Origin: Escherichia coli
GTDB taxonomy: Bacteria; Pseudomonadota; Gammaproteobacteria; Enterobacterales; Enterobacteriaceae
Direction: 5' to 3' (one strand)
DNA: 64,000 bases
NCBI RefSeq assembly: GCF_003790525.1
Contig: NZ_CP033635.1
Below the pieces are notes generated by a model. The model was not told the origin of the DNA, did no database searches, and saw only the letters and a program-made list of their open reading frames with translations. This document shows positions 1-62,140 of the stretch, one piece after another; the first letter of the stretch is position 1, and each line of letters opens with the position of its first letter. Both the position numbers and the translations under genes were made by a program.

Positions 1-175
<175 letters not shown>

Positions 176-550
176 TAGCTATGTGGGTGGCTCATCGCTG
201 ACGGCATGTATGCGTAACAGAGCATCTGTATCATCCGTTTGACGTTTTCGTCGGCGATCCTGCCAGCTATTCGGACATCTTGTGAAACCCAAAGGCAGCG
301 GCTGACGAAGCTTATCCGGTATCCTCTCGCAACAAAGGTACATGTACCATCTACTTTTTGGGCGGCCATTGTCGACAGATTCTTAAGTAGAACAGCTAAG
401 TTTAGATTTAGGAAAAAGTTGTTAAAATCAAGCAAATACTTATCATCATCACTTGATTTCGTAAACGCAAAACTACGATACTATTAACAAATTCTTCTAT
501 GCATTCTTACCGAATGTTGGCGGTAGCGTGCTTAATCACTCGGATTTAGT

Positions 551-3500
551 ATGAAAAAAAATTCTTTAAATGTGATTTTGGATACTGTTTTCTCGGCGAA
601 AAGCATCAATGGTGAGAAATCTCATTCTTTTATATCGTATAAATTAGTTAAAGCTGTAGAAAATTTAAGTGGATATGACTTGGATCTTTTCCTCAATCGT
701 GCGATAAACCATCCTAACTTCCCTAGCAATATGGATTTTTCCTTACGAACAGTTTTTACAATTGAACAATCTAACACTATTGAATTTAAAAATTTCATTT
801 CAGAATTGGTGTGGTACAAGCATATTTTCATACGATATAAAAAACACCTTAATGATATATTATCGGCAAAGGCAAGACTTGAGAAGTTAGTTCTTTTCGC
901 AACAGGTAGTGAATGTATAAAATATTTAGATGAAATAGAAAGCTCTTATGGAGTTAGTTTTTGGAGCATTGATGCTCGTCTCTTAATAAATAAAGTTTTG
1001 CTTAACGAAAGCAATGGGTTATATGTTAAATCAATTCTATCTAAAACCCACTATAAACTTACAGAGTTTATGTTACAGCAGCTATTATTTAAGCATCAAG
1101 TACATAACTTTGATGATTTTTCAAAGAACCTTATAAAAATACTAGATGATATGCGCACCACTCAAGATAATGGGTATGCTAGAAATTTAGCTGATGGTAT
1201 TTCATCCTTTTTAATACCTTTAGAGTTTGATAAAAATATAGATCTCAAAAATAGAACCTTAGCACCATTTACCAACCTTCCTTTAATAGATCAATTTATC
1301 ATATTCCAGAGAACTATAAGCGATTTACAACTTCATGGAAATGGTTTAAGAAATAGCGAGTTAAGCTTAATTGCAGAAATTAACAGCTTTATTAAAAATA
1401 ACTATCTCAACAATATTTTAGATGGAAGAGAGCGTAATATAGAGAATATTGATGAACACTATAAAAGTGTTATTCGACGTTATACTATAGGTGATTATAC
1501 TGGGTGTATTTCAGAAATAAATTCAGTTCGAACGCAGAAGACAATTTTGCCATTAATTGAAATATATGCAAAATCCCATGTGTATCTTGATAAGAAAATT
1601 TCAGACTCATGCATATTCAATAAATTAACAAACTGGCTTATAGCAATTATAAAATGCGACAGACGCGCTGGAAAATACATCGATGAATTTGAACTTTTAG
1701 CATCTAAGATATATTTCAATTCAAATTCATCCTCTCTATTCTTCACATTATATAATTTAATAAGTGATAACCATAATAAATTAAACATATCTCGTATAAA
1801 TCTAACCAAAAATGGTTCCTTTGTAACATCCCTTCATTTGAATATAACAATCAAGGAACTATGGACTGAACTTGGAATAAAAGAGAATGAGATACCAAAA
1901 TATCGATTATTTAAATTCAAAGACCTAGCAAATCTATCCTTTGATGAAATCAAAAAACACTACGAAGTATACAATGATAATGTAATAATTCGCTCTGAAT
2001 ATTTAAAAGATTATACTAACTTTTTATTAGAAAATGAAAAGTATGAATTATGCATCCAATTTATAGCTGAAAACTGCATCGGCAACCCCGCAAATTATTA
2101 CTACTTCCCAATCCGAAAAATAATTGATTTTGTAAAAGACAATATTTTTGACTATGCAAGCGTGGCCTTATCTATATTGATAGATATTTTTGTCAAAAGC
2201 ACATCAAACACTTCAAATGAGCTTCTTCTCGAAAGTTATGAGAGTTTAGTAGATATTTCAAATATTAATAGGCCATCTACCCATTATTGCTCTAAGCAAT
2301 TAACTCCATTAGAGCACTATTTCCTTAAGTTTATCTGTATACCTTCCGTGATGGATTCAGACCCTTCATTCACAGGCACGGACGACTTGAAGAAGGAAAG
2401 AATTGCTATTATAGATCTATTATTAAAAGAACACGATGATGCAGATTTATTGAAAGAGAAAGACGAAATTATAGATGAAATATCATTCGAAGAAATAAAA
2501 ACAAAATATGAGACAGGAAAAATATTTGTTGATATAGAAAATTTAAAACGGGCAAAGCTTGAAAGATACAGATATTATTTTGATGCACTTAAGGATTCGC
2601 TTATTCTCGGACTAGAACCACCTGAAGACTTTGCTTTAATTACAGACGATGGGAATATCACAGCCATTCCATCTGGCGATACAAACTCTATAATCCATGA
2701 ACTTCTAAAAGAACTAATCTCCGATTTTGTTAAAAATGAAAATTACGGTCTTGATAAATATTTGAGTGCAGATATACGGCATGGTGTTTTTGAAAATCAA
2801 CTCAGATCAAGTGCTGAAAAATCGCAATTAATAACTGATATGGATGGTACTGGACAGTATTCGAAAAGCAATTTAATTATTGAGACATATCCATTAATTA
2901 ACCCTATTATAAATAACGAAATAGGGACAGCAATAGCTGATTTCTCTTATCACTTTGACATTGAATTGGCTAAAGCCAATTCCTGGTTCAATGTCAAGAC
3001 AATGCTCATAAGTGAATCACAGCAAGGTATGATTGATTTCCTCATTTCTGTTGATATGTTTAATTCATTTAAAGCAGCAGTTTCAAATCAAGCATCTTTT
3101 GAGAAGTTTTTTGACGCTTGTATTAACTTCATGTGGGAAAGAACGTTCAGATGTTTGAATGATATTAAAGAGCGATTGCATTACGAATTTAAGAGGAATA
3201 TTTTAGATTTAATTGCCACTCTTAGGCATCAAATTGATATCTATAGAAGACGTAGTTCCATGAGAGAAATCCAGGAGAAAATTGACCTCTTGGCCGAAAG
3301 CATTAATAAAGAAATTGCAACAGTCTGCGATTGGTTAAATGTACTTGAGTATAACGAGGAGAAAATATATAAAATATCATCCGTGATGCAGGCATGTAGG
3401 AAAACTTTTTTTAATATACACCATTGTTCTGATGATGCTATCGTTTTTGATTCAATGTATCATGATGATGAACCAAAATTATCTTATAAAGAAGCCAAGC

Positions 3501-3826
3501 CTCTAATCACATCAATAATAACAGCGTTAAACAATGCTATGGCCTATGGTAATAAAAAAATCTTTATCAGTATTAAGCCTGAAGAAAAGTCATGGAAAAT
3601 AACCATCAGAAATTTGATAATTGAGACAAAGAACAGAACTACCAACCAAATTTTACAAGAGATTGATGATAAAATAAAACGAGGGGATAATAGTCTAAAT
3701 ATAAAAGAAGGCGGAGCTGGAATATATAAAATATATGATTTATTATGTTCATTACCGCAAAGATTTAATGTGAATCATTGCATCCAAAATAACGAATTCA
3801 TTTTAAATATTGAGATAAAGAAATGA
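551..3826 (+). CDS. Large sensor protein with C-terminal histidine-kinase-like ATPase core (Detocs DtcA-like); N-terminal ~850 aa of unknown, probably helical-repeat, sensing function
   Basis: 1091-aa ORF, strongly AT-rich. C-terminus carries an N-box-like motif (ITALNNAMAYGN, compare EnvZ NAARYGNG) and a G2-like GGAGIY motif; a candidate H-box (ERLHYEFKRNILDL) lies ~100 aa upstream. Stop overlaps next start (ATGA at 3823-3826). Confidence 0.6.
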   Translation: MKKNSLNVILDTVFSAKSINGEKSHSFISYKLVKAVENLSGYDLDLFLNRAINHPNFPSNMDFSLRTVFTIEQSNTIEFKNFISELVWYKHIFIRYKKHLNDILSAKARLEKLVLFATGSECIKYLDEIESSYGVSFWSIDARLLINKVLLNESNGLYVKSILSKTHYKLTEFMLQQLLFKHQVHNFDDFSKNLIKILDDMRTTQDNGYARNLADGISSFLIPLEFDKNIDLKNRTLAPFTNLPLIDQFIIFQRTISDLQLHGNGLRNSELSLIAEINSFIKNNYLNNILDGRERNIENIDEHYKSVIRRYTIGDYTGCISEINSVRTQKTILPLIEIYAKSHVYLDKKISDSCIFNKLTNWLIAIIKCDRRAGKYIDEFELLASKIYFNSNSSSLFFTLYNLISDNHNKLNISRINLTKNGSFVTSLHLNITIKELWTELGIKENEIPKYRLFKFKDLANLSFDEIKKHYEVYNDNVIIRSEYLKDYTNFLLENEKYELCIQFIAENCIGNPANYYYFPIRKIIDFVKDNIFDYASVALSILIDIFVKSTSNTSNELLLESYESLVDISNINRPSTHYCSKQLTPLEHYFLKFICIPSVMDSDPSFTGTDDLKKERIAIIDLLLKEHDDADLLKEKDEIIDEISFEEIKTKYETGKIFVDIENLKRAKLERYRYYFDALKDSLILGLEPPEDFALITDDGNITAIPSGDTNSIIHELLKELISDFVKNENYGLDKYLSADIRHGVFENQLRSSAEKSQLITDMDGTGQYSKSNLIIETYPLINPIINNEIGTAIADFSYHFDIELAKANSWFNVKTMLISESQQGMIDFLISVDMFNSFKAAVSNQASFEKFFDACINFMWERTFRCLNDIKERLHYEFKRNILDLIATLRHQIDIYRRRSSMREIQEKIDLLAESINKEIATVCDWLNVLEYNEEKIYKISSVMQACRKTFFNIHHCSDDAIVFDSMYHDDEPKLSYKEAKPLITSIITALNNAMAYGNKKIFISIKPEEKSWKITIRNLIIETKNRTTNQILQEIDDKIKRGDNSLNIKEGGAGIYKIYDLLCSLPQRFNVNHCIQNNEFILNIEIKK

Positions 3827-4272
3827 AAATTCTTCTTGTTGAGGATATTGAATATAAGCGTGATAAGGTGATCGGTTTACTAGAGTCTATTTCTGCCGAT
3901 GTATCAGTCGATGTAGCTAAATCTTATGTTTCGGCAGTAAATTCCGCAACCAGTAAAACTTATGATCTTATAATATTAGATATGAGCCTTCCCACTTACG
4001 ATAAGGGGCCTAATGAAAATGGAGGTCGCTTCAGAGTGTACGGAGGGAAAGATATTATTCGCAAGTTAATGAGAGGAAAAGAGCATCCAGTAGTTGTGGT
4101 TTTAACACAACATACAACTTTTGGTGAAATTGGTGAGCAAAAAAATACTGACACTCTATCACAAGAGTTGAATGCTTTAATGGGATCAAAATTTATAGGT
4201 ATTGTAAAATATGACTCAACTAAACCTCAATGGAAAGATGAAATAAAAAAAGTCGTACAGGATTTGTTATGA
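3823..4272 (+). CDS. Stand-alone receiver (REC) domain protein (Detocs DtcB-like)
   Basis: 149 aa; KILLVEDIE N-terminal acidic pocket, YDLIILDMSLP with candidate phospho-acceptor Asp53, downstream VVVLT. Start and stop are coupled by ATGA overlaps to both neighbours. Confidence 0.6.
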   Translation: MKILLVEDIEYKRDKVIGLLESISADVSVDVAKSYVSAVNSATSKTYDLIILDMSLPTYDKGPNENGGRFRVYGGKDIIRKLMRGKEHPVVVVLTQHTTFGEIGEQKNTDTLSQELNALMGSKFIGIVKYDSTKPQWKDEIKKVVQDLL

Positions 4273-5432
4273 TTAAAATATTAATAGTTGATGACAATAA
4301 ATCTAGAATTGAAAAGCTAAAATCTAGCTTAACTGAACTCATCACAAAAAACATGATAAGGATTGATGAGAAATATACAAGTGACGCCGCAAAAATCGCG
4401 CTCAAGTTAAATCAATATGATTATTTAATTCTTGATGTCTTTTTACCTAAAAAAGATAACTATAGCCCAGATGAAAGAAATGGATTAGGTCTTTTAAAAC
4501 AAATAAATTCAGATTCTAAATTTTACTCTCCAAAAAAAATAGTTGGCATAACTGCATATCTGAATGATATATCCAGATATGAATCCGAATTCAGAGAATA
4601 TGCTTCAATTATATTCGAGGCTCGACGTAATGATACTGGATGGCTTGAATCACTCAAAAAAATCATTGAAAAGGATGTTGAATCTCAAGTAAGTTATAAT
4701 CTCAATGAAAAAGATAGTGTTTTAATAACAGTACACGGTATAAGAACCTACGCACCTTGGCAAAATACCATAGAAGAAAAAATAACCAATATATCAAATA
4801 AATTTAACTATATAAAATTCAATTATGGTTTTCTAAATATTCTTTGTTTTTTATTCCCTCCGACTAGACATCTATTTGCAAGAAAAATAATCCAAGACAT
4901 ACGAATTACAGTGGAATCAAATAAGAATAAAAGAATTTATATTATTTGTCATAGTTTTGGTACCTACCTTGTATATTGTGCCTTAAGTAAACTGACACAT
5001 ACGGATGCAAAAATTGAATGTTTAATTTTTTCTGGTAGCGTATTAAAACGTACTACCTCATTGAAAACATTAAAGCAACATTGTAATGCAATAATAAATG
5101 ACTGTGCTGTAAGTGATTATATTTTATTACTATGTAAAATGTTAGTCATTGGCTTGGGCGATGCAGGCAGAAAAGGGTTTATTGAGCCAAATGATGGTGT
5201 TTTCATTAACCGCTATTTTAAAGGAGGACATTCAACTTACTTCGAAGATAAAGATTTCATAGAAGTGAACTGGCTTCCTTTAATTTTTGACAATAAAAAT
5301 ATCGCGTCACGAGATGAAAGAAAAAATCATATTTTTTCCGATGTCACCAATGCTTTGCAAAATATAATTGAATATTTAAAAATACCAATATGGTTATTTT
5401 TTTCTTTTTTATTGATAGCACTGGTATTATAA
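4269..5432 (+). CDS. Receiver (REC) domain fused to predicted alpha/beta serine hydrolase (lipase/esterase-like) with C-terminal transmembrane anchor (Detocs DtcC-like effector, non-PNP)
   Basis: 387 aa; N-terminal REC (KILIVDDN, YDYLILDVFLP Asp56). C-terminal part has VLITVHGIRT (oxyanion-hole-like HG), nucleophile elbow ICHSFG (Ser229, nt 4953-4955), later GGHSTYF (candidate catalytic His) and a hydrophobic tail IPIWLFFSFLLIALVL. Confidence 0.6.
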   Translation: MIKILIVDDNKSRIEKLKSSLTELITKNMIRIDEKYTSDAAKIALKLNQYDYLILDVFLPKKDNYSPDERNGLGLLKQINSDSKFYSPKKIVGITAYLNDISRYESEFREYASIIFEARRNDTGWLESLKKIIEKDVESQVSYNLNEKDSVLITVHGIRTYAPWQNTIEEKITNISNKFNYIKFNYGFLNILCFLFPPTRHLFARKIIQDIRITVESNKNKRIYIICHSFGTYLVYCALSKLTHTDAKIECLIFSGSVLKRTTSLKTLKQHCNAIINDCAVSDYILLLCKMLVIGLGDAGRKGFIEPNDGVFINRYFKGGHSTYFEDKDFIEVNWLPLIFDNKNIASRDERKNHIFSDVTNALQNIIEYLKIPIWLFFSFLLIALVL

Positions 5433-5458
5433 TATCACTGCACATTAAAAATCATATT

Positions 5459-5484
5459 GGAGCTTCCCTCATAAAGCTCCAATA
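5459..5484 (+). terminator. Candidate stem-loop downstream of the three-gene operon
   Basis: GGAGCTT-ccctcat-AAGCTCC inverted repeat 27 nt after the stop at 5432; no clear T-run. Confidence 0.3.
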
Positions 5485-5911
5485 TAAAACACCATCATTT
5501 CAATAGTACCTGCAGCTAATTAAAACTAGTCAACCGAAAAAATTAATCACTTTAAACTTTAGTATGCACTTATACTTTCTTAATAATAGAAAAACACTTA
5601 CAAATAAATTAATCATGTCAATCTCCGTAACTACAACCTCGGAAAGTATGTAAACAGGAATCATTACTGAAAAAAACACGATTTCAGCAGAATTCTAGAA
5701 ATATCCTGTGCTGCTGCCGATACCAACTTTCGTATATACTACCCTTCACGTTCCTTCTCGTTTTTATAAAACTATTCATTTATAACTATCAATAGGCATC
5801 ATAACCAATGTAAGTGTAAGTACTGGTGAACGAGTGTCAATGGAGTTAAAAGTATCACTTCATCCTGCTAAATATAAGTTATCCTACGTTTTAATATACT
5901 AGAACTCAAAA

Positions 5912-6877
5912 TTAGAATGGTTTGTTAATATTAATAGATTTACCATTGATATCTTTTGACACCTTAAAAAAATCTATACCTTTTATCCACTGACATAACT
6001 GTTGTAGTGTTTCCATTGCCTGTTCTAACTCATTTTTTTCAATTCTAACGCCCCCATGATGGCTACAGGAATTTAATAATTCCTGAGCTAGAGTGATGTC
6101 ATTCTTCAGCTTATTAGGCAGACCGAGAAAATTAATCACCCTCGACAAACTCCCAAGCATTAACTTTTGATAGTCTTCTTCAAATTCCTTTTCAGCCCTA
6201 ATATTTACTAACATCAAAACATACTCAAGATAACGCCGTGCTGTATTTCCCTTTTCTTGTAACGCATCTCTATCATACTCTTTAATATCACTCAATTCCT
6301 GTAGTAGAAAATCAAACTTAGCTATTGCCAAGTTAAGATTGATGTTATGCATTAGCAATTCGGATGCATGATTGCTAACAGGTACACGATTTGGTGGACG
6401 TATCATTATAGCCGTCGTGTAACAATTTATATTTGGTATCTGTATAAATTCCTCACCGGAACGCGTAACACGTTGAACTTCTACCATATAGTGGCCAAAT
6501 TTATCAATCTCATATGACCGACAACGAGCAGAATATAATTTATTTAGCTTTTTCCTGTCTTGATAATATGATTTTATTAATACAAAAAATGCTCTTTCGT
6601 GCTCAATAATTAAAATAGTCTCTATTGAAGCATGGTACAACCATCCGTTATTCCATGTTAATTCAAGCTGTCTATTTCCATCTTTAAAATCAATTTTAGT
6701 TATACGATCCCAACTTCCTCTATCAATAAAATCGACAATATTGCGCCCAAATCCTTGATAGTTATTTTTAACAATGTGCAATAGTACTGCCTTTATTTTA
6801 TCCCAATCATGAATTTCTTTTTCATATTCACCATTTAATATATTCGTTAAATCACTGTGAAAATTTTCATATGTCAT
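5912..6877 (-). CDS. Hypothetical protein (island cargo, no recognisable motifs)
   Basis: 321-aa ORF with ATG at 6877, AT-rich like the neighbouring operon, directly downstream of the integrase on the same strand. Confidence 0.55.
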   Translation of the reverse strand: MTYENFHSDLTNILNGEYEKEIHDWDKIKAVLLHIVKNNYQGFGRNIVDFIDRGSWDRITKIDFKDGNRQLELTWNNGWLYHASIETILIIEHERAFFVLIKSYYQDRKKLNKLYSARCRSYEIDKFGHYMVEVQRVTRSGEEFIQIPNINCYTTAIMIRPPNRVPVSNHASELLMHNINLNLAIAKFDFLLQELSDIKEYDRDALQEKGNTARRYLEYVLMLVNIRAEKEFEEDYQKLMLGSLSRVINFLGLPNKLKNDITLAQELLNSCSHHGGVRIEKNELEQAMETLQQLCQWIKGIDFFKVSKDINGKSININKPF

Positions 6878-6978
6878 AAGTATCTCTTTTTAGATAAAAT
6901 TGGATTTCGACAAGTAGACGTTGATAACAACAAGACTGGTTAGATAATTTAATCATTGATGCAACGTTTAGCGTTGAA

Positions 6979-8163
6979 TCAATTGACATCATTACCAATT
7001 CTTCCAATGCAATCAGCATACCACTGCATCATCTCCCTCCGCCCTTCCAGATACAAAGCATGGTTGTACGTCCCACGAATCGCATTCTTATCGACATGCG
7101 CAAGCTGGGTTTCAATCCATGCCGTATTGAACCCTTCCTCGTGCAAAATCGTACTCATCGTGTGACGGAAACCATGCCCCGTTACCTTCCCCGTATACCC
7201 AATCCGTTTGAATACCTGATTCATACTCGCTTCACTCATCGTCTTGCGGGGATCATTTCGCCCTGGGAATACCAGTGGATATTGCCCAGATATCACCTTG
7301 AGTTGTTGTACGATTTCCAGCGCTTGGGTAGATAGGGGGACAAGGTGAGGCCGTTTCATCTTCATACGCTCTGCAGGTATTTCCCACACTGCTTTTTCAA
7401 GATCAAACTCACTCCAGAAAGCACCTCGTAGCTCGCCAGTACGAACTCCTGTAAGGATCAGCAGACGAGCGGCAAGAACAACTAACGGGCTTCCTGTGTA
7501 GCCTGCGAGAGCTTTAAAGAAGTCTGGTAACTCCTCAACAGTAAGGAAGGGATAATGCTTCGATTCATGCCCTGACATTGCGCTGGTTAGATCCGCTGCA
7601 GGATTGTATTCCGCACGACCGGTAACGATGGCGTAACGAAAGACTTCACTGCAACGCTGGCGAACCTTCTTGGCCTTCTCTGTCGCGCCACGGCTTTCCA
7701 TTCGACGTAGCACATTCAGCAGAACCAAAGGCTTGATGTCATTCACCGGCAGTTGGCCAATATAAGGGAAAATATCTTTATTGAAGGCTTCGATAATGTC
7801 GGAGGCATAACCTTCTGACCACCGGCTCACCTTCGTTCCGTGCCATTCAAGTGCCACAGCCTGAAACGTATTATTGAGCTGCACATCGCGAACCAACTTT
7901 TCTTCTTTCTTGGCAAACGATGGGTCGATACCTTCGGCCAGCTTTTTCTTGGCTTCATCACGCAGTGCCCTCGCTTGTGCAAGGGACACTGCCGGATAGA
8001 CACCAAAAGCCATACGTTTCTCTTTTCCATTGAAGCGATATTTCATCCGCCAGTATCGAGAACCAGAAGGAACAACTTCAAGATACAAGCCTGCACCATC
8101 TGCTAGCTTGTAGGCTTTCTCTCTGGGTTTAGCAGCATCTACCTGTCGAGCATTAAGCTTCAT
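6979..8163 (-). CDS. Site-specific tyrosine integrase, P4-like family
   Basis: N-terminus MKLNARQVDAAKPREKAYKLADGAGLYLEVVPSGSRYWRMKYRFNGKEKRMAFGVYP is typical of P4-type integrases; C-terminus has GHGFRHT and LAHVDKN...RGTYNH catalytic-region motifs. Start placed at ATG 8163 (AGGGAG 9 nt upstream); lies 164 bp from the tRNA 3' end. Confidence 0.9.
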   Translation of the reverse strand: MKLNARQVDAAKPREKAYKLADGAGLYLEVVPSGSRYWRMKYRFNGKEKRMAFGVYPAVSLAQARALRDEAKKKLAEGIDPSFAKKEEKLVRDVQLNNTFQAVALEWHGTKVSRWSEGYASDIIEAFNKDIFPYIGQLPVNDIKPLVLLNVLRRMESRGATEKAKKVRQRCSEVFRYAIVTGRAEYNPAADLTSAMSGHESKHYPFLTVEELPDFFKALAGYTGSPLVVLAARLLILTGVRTGELRGAFWSEFDLEKAVWEIPAERMKMKRPHLVPLSTQALEIVQQLKVISGQYPLVFPGRNDPRKTMSEASMNQVFKRIGYTGKVTGHGFRHTMSTILHEEGFNTAWIETQLAHVDKNAIRGTYNHALYLEGRREMMQWYADCIGRIGNDVN

Positions 8164-8326
8164 TGGGGGCATCTCCCTGGACCGAACACAGAATGCCCCC
8201 ACTTATGCCCCCAACTGCGACTTGATTTCGGTTGAGTCCAGTTGATAACAGGAGATAAGATACGGGCCAGAAACCGCAGTATACGGGCTTTTAGTTGATT
8301 TCGGTAGACTTGGGAAGAGTTTGAAA

Positions 8327-8402
8327 TGGTGCCGATAATAGGAGTCGAACCTACGACCTTCGCATTACGAATGCGCTGCTCTACCAACTGAGCTATATCG
8401 GC
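8327..8402 (-). tRNA. thrW: tRNA-Thr (anticodon CGU)
   Basis: 76-nt minus-strand sequence GCCGATATAGCTCAGTTGGTAGAGCAGCGCATTCGTAATGCGAAGGTCGTAGGTTCGACTCCTATTATCGGCACCA folds as a cloverleaf with anticodon loop TTCGTAA and CCA end. Confidence 0.9.
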
Positions 8403-18698: not shown

Positions 18699-19098
18699 TC
18701 AAAAACGCATGCGAAACGCTTCTGCCATTTTCCCAATTTTATGCATTTGGTTGTTATCTCGAGCCAGTTTATGAGGTTCAGGTTTCAGAATGGCAATGAG
18801 CAACCATGCTTGCTCATCAAACGCACCCTGACAATATACCAAATGCGCTTCGTCATTCGTTCTGCTGAATTGGCGCAACTGTGGCGGAAATGGATTATTC
18901 ACATTTGCCAGATGAATATGAGCAACTCGCTCAAATTTGATTAATGGCCAGGTAAACGAGTCGTCGTAGGAGTGCATCGCGACCAAATATATCTGGCAAA
19001 ACACCGTCACGCTTATAGGAAATAAAATCCGCCGTTAACGCATCAAGTTCCTCTGCTGTAAGTTGCAGGCGAATAAGTTTTGTTTTGAATACCCGCAT
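18699..19098 (-). pseudogene. yafO: yafO toxin gene interrupted by a single-base frameshift
   Basis: ATG at 19098, coupled to the yafN stop, encodes MRVFKTKLIRLQLTAEELDALTADFISYKRDGVLPDIFGRDAL, then stops after 13 more codons. The rest of YafO (YDDSFTWPLIKFERVAH...FRMRF) continues in the +1 frame; the frames meet at a CTCC run near 18969-18972. Confidence 0.6.
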
Positions 19099-19100
19099 CC

Positions 19101-61599: not shown

Positions 61600-61860
61600 A
61601 TGGCTGCTAACGCGTTTGTTCGCGCCCGAATCGATGAAGATCTGAAGAATCAGGCGGCGGACGTACTGGCCGGGATGGGGCTGACCATCTCTGACCTGGT
61701 TCGCATAACCCTCACAAAGGTCGCGCGTGAAAAGGCATTGCCGTTTGATTTACGCGAGCCTAATCAATTAACTATTCAATCAATCAAAAACAGCGAAGCT
61801 GGCGTTGGTATTCATAAGGCCAAAGACGCCGATGATTTATTTGATAAATTAGGAATTTAA
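61600..61860 (+). CDS. dinJ: Antitoxin DinJ
   Basis: 86-aa translation MAANAFVRARIDEDLKNQAADVLAGMGLTISDLVRITLTKVAREKALPFDL... matches DinJ. Confidence 0.9.
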   Translation: MAANAFVRARIDEDLKNQAADVLAGMGLTISDLVRITLTKVAREKALPFDLREPNQLTIQSIKNSEAGVGIHKAKDADDLFDKLGI

Positions 61861-61862
61861 AT

Positions 61863-62140
61863 ATGATTCAAAGGGATATTGAATACTCGGGACAATTTTC
61901 AAAGGATGTAAAACTTGCACAAAAGCGTCATAAGGATATGAATAAATTGAAATATCTTATGACGCTCTTATCAATAATACTTTACTGCTTCCAGCTGTTT
62001 ATAAAGACCACCCGCTGCAAGGTTCATGGAAAGGTTATCGCGATGCTCATGTCGAACCGGACTGGATCCTGATTTACAAACTTACCGATAAACTTTTACG
62101 ATTTGAGAGAACTGGAACTCACGCGGCGCTATTTGGGTAA
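61863..62140 (+). pseudogene. yafQ: yafQ toxin gene interrupted by a single-base frameshift
   Basis: N-terminus MIQRDIEYSGQFSKDVKLAQKRHKDMNKLKYLMTLL is YafQ. After CTCTTATCAATAAT the frame shifts; the remainder (INNTLLLPAVYKDHPLQGSWKGYRDAHVEPDWILIYKL...AALFG) continues in another frame to TAA at 62138-62140. Span is 278 nt, not a multiple of 3. Confidence 0.6.

Follow-up and report, generated by a model that had tools for sequence, protein, structure and literature searches.

The Detocs family of phage defence systems comprises the genes dtcA, dtcB and dtcC, and its detection rule allows no more than one foreign gene among them (methods, Rousset et al. 2023, bioRxiv 10.1101/2023.01.24.525353). 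In that study DtcA is annotated as 'TPRs + histidine kinase', and 80% of the Detocs operons carry a PNP (ATP nucleosidase) effector. A Detocs-hydrolase system of Enterobacter cloacae JD6301 was validated for phage protection (Rousset et al. 2023, Table S1, Fig. S8C), and Table S5 lists 'Hydrolase + TM' (transmembrane) Detocs systems from E. coli WCE035, O76 and G177, from Klebsiella quasipneumoniae FI_HV_2014 and from many Vibrio and Yersinia. Dependence on individual residues was shown only for the Vibrio alginolyticus system, protection being the result for E. cloacae. In V. alginolyticus, the mutation H645A in DtcA abolishes defence, and mutation of the DtcB Asp is toxic in an effector-dependent manner (Rousset et al. 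2023). Here we describe a three-gene operon at positions 551-5432 of a 64,000-nucleotide stretch of Escherichia coli contig NZ_CP033635.1 (the window). The operon is a divergent member of the already published Detocs hydrolase + TM subtype and not a new kind of system. It very probably represents a Detocs hydrolase + TM system, located on an integrative island of 12 kb at a tRNA-Thr gene, that acts as modelled from its validated homologues.

Operon architecture and relationship to Detocs

The plus strand carries three open reading frames (ORFs; Table 1). The gene 1/2 and gene 2/3 junctions read AAATGAAAA and TTATGATTA, in which stop and next start codon overlap as ATGA. The ORF coordinates and junction sequences thus agree with a preliminary description of this locus, made from the sequence alone. 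The dtcA-, dtcB- and dtcC-like genes are adjacent, co-oriented and overlapping, which is the gene order of the Detocs detection rule. Since DNA of ~30% GC content is rich in stop codons, ORFs of such length are not due to chance. A hairpin following gene 3 likely marks the end of the operon.

Detocs membership was judged by the PDC-M60 models of PADLOC (PADLOC-DB v2.0.0, where PDC-M60 is a candidate system) and by direct comparison with published Detocs proteins. All three proteins matched the A/B/C models: gene 1 matched PDC-M60A (E 4.5e-55, residues 491-1061), gene 2 PDC-M60B (2e-35) and gene 3 PDC-M60C (1e-22), the last with its receiver part only (aa 2-149), the PDC-M60C model being of the PNP type. 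The reference proteins of both Detocs systems with experimental data (Table S1, Rousset et al. 2023) were scanned against the same library. V. alginolyticus DtcC matched PDC-M60C over its full length (1.4e-64), both validated DtcB proteins matched PDC-M60B, and the first 399 aa of E. cloacae DtcA matched PDC-M60A. Thus, PDC-M60 corresponds to the Detocs family.

Full-length validated kinases were recovered from the contigs encoding the published DtcC proteins. E. cloacae DtcA (1103 aa) matched the gene 1 homologue profile over its whole length (E 2.7e-107). V. alginolyticus DtcA, the shorter protein at 984 aa, is very distant and matched the profile only weakly (E 7.8e-4). The precomputed Pfam label PF27260 ('Y4jQ') is attached to both validated DtcA proteins and also to two relatives of gene 1, a Klebsiella copy (99% identity) and a more distant protein (63% identity). 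The genes of relatives at 63%, 36% and 25% identity to gene 1 are each followed by a ~150-aa receiver gene and then a receiver-effector gene. The 36% relative has a hydrolase as effector domain and the 25% relative a PNP domain, while the 388-aa product next to the 63% relative is labelled Response_reg only. The phmmer relative P0178 of gene 1 is located in a PNP-type Detocs operon. The PNP receiver-effector ties gene 1 directly to the canonical PNP-type Detocs operons. In a metagenomic relative of 27% identity (L012:5739-6963), a 122-aa receiver ORF and a separate 292-aa ORF take the place of a single receiver-effector gene, probably owing to a frameshift or an assembly error.

Gene 2 aligned end to end with E. 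cloacae DtcB (32% identity, E 1e-19). In comparison with CheY, its residues E7-D8, D53 and T95 align with D12-D13, D57 and T87, which places the phospho-acceptor at the Asp of YDLIILDMSLP, as had been proposed. Gene 3 aligned end to end with E. cloacae DtcC (387 versus 386 aa, 32% identity, E 9e-56). It consists of a receiver (aa 1-~120), an alpha/beta hydrolase (aa ~150-345) and a TM helix (aa 369-387). In the receiver, D8-D9, D56 and T95 align with the same CheY residues (D12-D13, D57 and T87), and D56 is also aligned to D58, a validated residue of V. alginolyticus DtcC. Residues invariant in 35 DtcC-hydrolase homologues include D56, T95, H156-G157, H228-S229-x-G231, D283 and H321 (in GGH). 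H156-G157 forms an oxyanion-hole type motif, and H228-S229-x-G231 (HSFG) is the nucleophile elbow. With S229, D283 and H321 all invariant, the Ser-Asp-His triad of gene 3 is intact.

In genes 2 and 3, neither a Pfam search nor a fold search detected any DNA-binding domain; the output of a conventional transcription-regulating two-component system was thus not found. NCBIfam regulator matches on both genes cover the receiver part only and lie far under the cut-offs. PGAP names the identical gene 3 product 'response regulator transcription factor' in some RefSeq genomes despite the lack of a DNA-binding domain, and calls gene 1 'hypothetical protein' in 16 of 16 E. coli genomes. These names are annotation errors or gaps.

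The closest validated system, that of E. cloacae JD6301, resembles the present operon in gene order and in protein sizes (1103/150/386 aa versus 1091/149/387 aa). Its DtcC has the same succession of receiver, alpha/beta hydrolase and C-terminal TM helix and shares the HSFG, GGH and NxC..D motifs; both kinases contain the IRHG His motif and the N-box; and the E. cloacae operon also adjoins an integrase. It differs in occupying another chromosomal site, whereas the present operon lies on an island at the tRNA-Thr gene thrW. The V. alginolyticus UCD-32C system shares the logic of kinase, buffer receiver and receiver-effector, with a PF27260 kinase. Its effector, in contrast, is a PNP domain that cleaves ATP and dATP instead of a membrane-anchored hydrolase. 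The suggestion that the operon might be an uncharacterised variant therefore did not hold, since an effector made up of receiver, alpha/beta hydrolase and TM helix characterises the published 'Detocs-hydrolase' subtype represented by E. cloacae JD6301 and Table S5. The nearest gene 3 homologues come from the same taxa as the 'Hydrolase + TM' entries of Table S5 and include a 98%-identical K. quasipneumoniae protein; this exact operon may be one of the E. coli or Klebsiella entries, which are given as IMG gene ids only.

In sum, the Detocs assignment made in the preliminary description is supported by the PDC-M60A/B/C matches, by homology to two validated operons, by the intact phospho-acceptors and by the structural match of gene 1 presented below, which together also bear out the proposed order of kinase, stand-alone receiver and receiver-effector.

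Gene 1 and its predicted phospho-accepting histidine

A word-indexed homologue search with gene 1 yielded just 2 proteins, while an exhaustive HMMER search returned 1498 cluster representatives at E <= 1e-3. The 150 best of these 1498 relatives are mostly ~1100 aa long. Conservation was counted in an alignment of 70 of the HMMER relatives, in which D247, Y311, R617, R743, H744, W928, N995, N1021, G1057 and K1060 are invariant and G1054/G1055 nearly so. Two motifs named in the preliminary description, the N-box-like ITALNNAMAYGN with N995 and the G2-like GGAGIY with G1054, G1055 and G1057, were thereby confirmed.

The candidate H-box ERLHYEFKRN (H877) fared differently: its column holds Asn in 44 and His in 6 of the 70 sequences, as opposed to R743-H744, which is found in 70/70. 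H744, in YLSADIRHGVFEN, aligns with H645, in YLGRRIRHGTFEG, of V. alginolyticus DtcA, the residue whose mutation abolishes defence. On the basis of conservation and this alignment, H744, not H877, is the predicted phospho-accepting His of gene 1.

A search of the PDB sequences with gene 1 alone gave only noise, and an NCBIfam scan returned nothing. The profile of the gene 1 family produced only sub-threshold matches to histidine kinases and TPR proteins (E 0.05-1), which we regard as suggestive but not decisive. A confident AlphaFold2 (AF2) model built on the 70-sequence alignment reached a mean predicted local distance difference test (pLDDT) of 88.1 and a predicted template modelling score (pTM) of 0.76. 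It shows all-helical repeats up to residue ~655, a helical middle part containing H744 and a C-terminal alpha/beta domain (residues 939-1091). The latter matched histidine-kinase catalytic domains structurally, providing the GHKL domain looked for in a DtcA, and this comparison settles the kinase question. Thus, gene 1 is a histidine kinase that has been overlooked by Pfam and PGAP.

In the AF2 model, residues 1-655 form ~35 short, paired helices. TPR profile matches in the gene 1 family are weak (E 0.05-0.5; for example 2kck, E 0.05, profile positions 298-354), and TPR-type Pfam domains (ANAPC3 or TPR_2) were found in only 1-2 of the 70 family members. No segment of gene 1 reaches transmembrane-level hydrophobicity, indicating that the kinase is cytoplasmic.

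Proposed mechanism and alternative explanations

The results described above establish how the operon is built, its homology and folds, and that its catalytic and phospho-acceptor residues are intact; for the present operon we infer the trigger, phosphotransfer, hydrolase substrate and anti-phage phenotype from the validated homologues. In this model, cytoplasmic DtcA (gene 1) would sense an infection cue via its large N-terminal helical-repeat region and, with ATP bound by its C-terminal GHKL domain, autophosphorylate on His744. The phosphate would pass to Asp56 of DtcC (gene 3), and phosphorylation of the receiver would switch on the membrane-anchored Ser229/Asp283/His321 alpha/beta hydrolase. 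The hydrolase may then attack an ester or lipid at the inner membrane, so that the infected cell is stopped (abortive infection); a membrane substrate is suggested by the TM anchor and by lipase-like matches. DtcB (gene 2) would compete for phosphate on Asp53, acting as a sink that prevents self-killing by a leaky kinase.

Both proposed functions have analogues. In chemotaxis-type phosphorelays, a spare phosphate-sink receiver drains phosphate from the kinase, comparable to the role proposed for DtcB, and lipase or phospholipase effectors of other abortive-infection systems, such as CapV of CBASS, provide a lipid-directed hydrolase as the cell-killing output. CapV, however, has a patatin fold and is activated by cyclic nucleotides, not by phosphorylation. 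To our knowledge, the detectable homology of such receivers and effectors to the products of the operon does not extend past the generic folds of receivers and alpha/beta hydrolases.

Several observations weigh against assigning the operon to Detocs and against the model. A Pfam scan of gene 1 returned nothing, which is explained by the absence of the recent accession PF27260 from the Pfam-A copy scanned. No HisKA or HATPase_c domain was detected either, and HATPase_c_5 was reached by only 2 of the 70 family members. The preliminary description had named missing HATPase_c or receiver matches as grounds for abandoning the Detocs assignment; for gene 1 the HATPase_c domain is indeed missing from the Pfam result, and this is overruled by the structural and family-profile evidence. 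The gene 3 receiver lacks an obviously conserved beta5 Lys. Pairwise identity to the E. cloacae JD6301 proteins is limited to ~32% for DtcB and DtcC and ~20% for DtcA, placing the operon in a different clade of the hydrolase subtype. Finally, the predicted phospho-accepting His is oddly placed. Classical histidine kinases have ~105-120 residues between the His and the N-box Asn. The distance from His744 to N995 is 251 residues, about twice that value, and no conserved His occurs in the helical hairpin (residues 850-928) that adjoins the catalytic domain.

The long spacing is shared by all Detocs kinases examined. With the validated or invariant His lying upstream, the distance to the N-box Asn is 238 residues in the E. 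cloacae kinase and 228 in that of V. alginolyticus (window 2780-2782 versus 3533-3535, compared with L006:2617-5571 and L008:2239-5550). Detocs kinases might accordingly not be of the canonical DHp (dimerization and histidine phosphotransfer) type but carry the His on a separate helical module, loosely like CheA or histidine-phosphotransfer (HPt) domains, and so form a distinct kinase class. In the same vein, the E. coli clade with its ~30% identity might answer a different phage cue than the tested systems do, and its hydrolase might be a phosphorylation-gated membrane lipase. We consider this combined proposal tentative and rather unlikely.

Three other explanations of the operon were weighed. 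It could be a conventional, non-defensive two-component pathway in which an enzymatic output remodels membrane lipids or an envelope ester upon a physiological signal, its location on an island being incidental. Receiver-enzyme fusions are common outside defence, and NCBIfam and PGAP label genes 2 and 3 merely 'response regulator' and 'alpha/beta hydrolase'. This explanation is nevertheless improbable, given the lack of a DNA-binding output, the full-length homology to an operon shown to be phage-protective and the presence of the locus in just 16 of 5426 E. coli genomes, on an integrase-bearing island. Moreover, relatives exchange the effector for an ATP-nucleosidase PNP domain, as is typical of defence modules. 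The toxicity of the V. alginolyticus DtcB Asp mutant, which depends on the effector, would also fit an addiction or stabilisation module for the island, with kinase and hydrolase as a latent toxin, DtcB as the antidote and phage defence secondary or absent; the island bears a CbtA/YeeU toxin-antitoxin pair as well. Translational coupling of the three genes in one operon, however, leaves no obvious differential stability, and the validated relatives do confer defence, making an addiction module slightly less probable still.

Least probable of all is a decaying, non-functional Detocs remnant. Gene 1 is directly preceded by an IS3 element, some other genes of the island are pseudogenes, and a promoter scan upstream of gene 1 gave no significant signal. 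Against decay, all three ORFs are intact with every invariant catalytic or acceptor residue present, and 16 E. coli genomes share the operon at 99.9-100% identity, with Klebsiella proteins that are 98-100% identical.

As a Detocs hydrolase + TM system, the operon reveals no new defence principle. What it contributes is a divergent example of the hydrolase type that occurs naturally in E. coli, on a small thrW island common to Klebsiella, and its E. coli host could make it a convenient native model for kinase sensing and for the substrate of the membrane hydrolase. The practical value of the analysis lies in a corrected annotation: a Detocs-hydrolase operon, with gene 1 as histidine kinase and the predicted phospho-His at H744 instead of H877.

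The thrW island and the remainder of the window

The GC content is 0.29-0.33 across window positions 1-7000, compared to ~0.50-0.55 in the proA/proB/phoE flank. A 23-nt imperfect direct repeat (21/23) was found at 8321-8343, overlapping the 3' end of tRNA-Thr(CGT), and at L001:10871-10893, the second copy lying beyond the window. The two copies are 12,051 bp apart and delimit an island of ~12.05 kb, inside which the window begins. The order of genes from the tRNA is integrase, a 321-aa ORF (5912-6877, minus strand), the three-gene operon and then genes beyond the window, which comprise the IS3 element, antirestriction, JAB/RadC-like and DUF987 genes and the CbtA/YeeU pair. The attachment (att) repeats, integrase and tRNA-Thr, together with the same island in Klebsiella, substantiate the earlier proposal of a horizontally acquired island. 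Coordinates are given in Table 1.

Table 1. Positions of the operon, its functional sites and the flanking island features in the window
Feature	Position	Strand	Evidence or remark
Gene 1, dtcA-like sensor histidine kinase, 1091 aa, cytoplasmic	551-3826	+	ORF, PDC-M60A, PF27260 relatives, AF2 model
Gene 1 N-terminal all-helical repeat region, aa 1-655, TPR-like, presumed phage-sensing	551-2515	+	AF2 secondary structure
His744 codon, predicted phospho-accepting His, motif YLSADIRHGVFEN	2780-2782	+	Conservation and alignment to V. alginolyticus DtcA H645
GHKL/histidine-kinase catalytic ATP-binding domain, aa 939-1091; N995, N1021, E1053-G-G-x-G1057-x-x-K1060	3365-3823	+	
N995 codon (N-box Asn)	3533-3535	+	Gene 1 alignment
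Gene 2, dtcB-like stand-alone receiver, 149 aa; phospho-acceptor Asp53 codon 3979-3981	3823-4272	+	PDC-M60B, E. cloacae DtcB, CheY
Gene 3, dtcC-like effector, 387 aa: receiver, alpha/beta hydrolase, C-terminal TM helix	4269-5432	+	
Hairpin, 15-bp stem	5452-5487	n/a	Terminator-like site directly 3' of gene 3 stop
Tyrosine integrase of island, outside the defence system itself	6979-8202	-	ORF, PHROG integrase 2e-78, PGAP
tRNA-Thr(CGT), thrW, integration site	8321-8402	-	ARAGORN

Window positions 400-7000 match E. coli SMS-3-5 (NC_010498.1) at 100% identity. Among 5426 complete E. coli genomes, this stretch is present at >=99.9% identity in only 16, chromosomal every time, and searches for the operon and DtcC in plasmid and phage collections gave no match. 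A Klebsiella copy of the operon (GCA_004311525.1, L002:4283-9164) encodes proteins 1, 2 and 3 with 99%, 100% and 98% identity and adjoins a fragmented integrase of the same type as well as proA/proB. This indicates a recent inter-genus transfer into the equivalent tRNA site.

The 321-aa ORF between operon and integrase has ~33% GC and is kept with the operon in the Klebsiella island copy. It had no Pfam, NCBIfam or PADLOC match and only a marginal match in PHROG. We considered it as a fourth component of the system and dropped it, as it is absent beside the 63%, 36% and 25% relatives and has no family match. It could be independent island cargo.

Most of the remaining window (~21400-59900; L010) is occupied by a complete Flag-2 lateral-flagellar cluster (flhA/flhB/fliR ... 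lafA ... motA/lafU), which is known from E. coli 042, with K-12 retaining remnants only. The toxin genes yafO (of yafNO) and yafQ (of dinJ-yafQ), at window ~18700-19100 and ~61860-62140 (L001 33300-33699; L010 1861-2138), are annotated as frameshifted in the present strain, and their antitoxin genes are intact.

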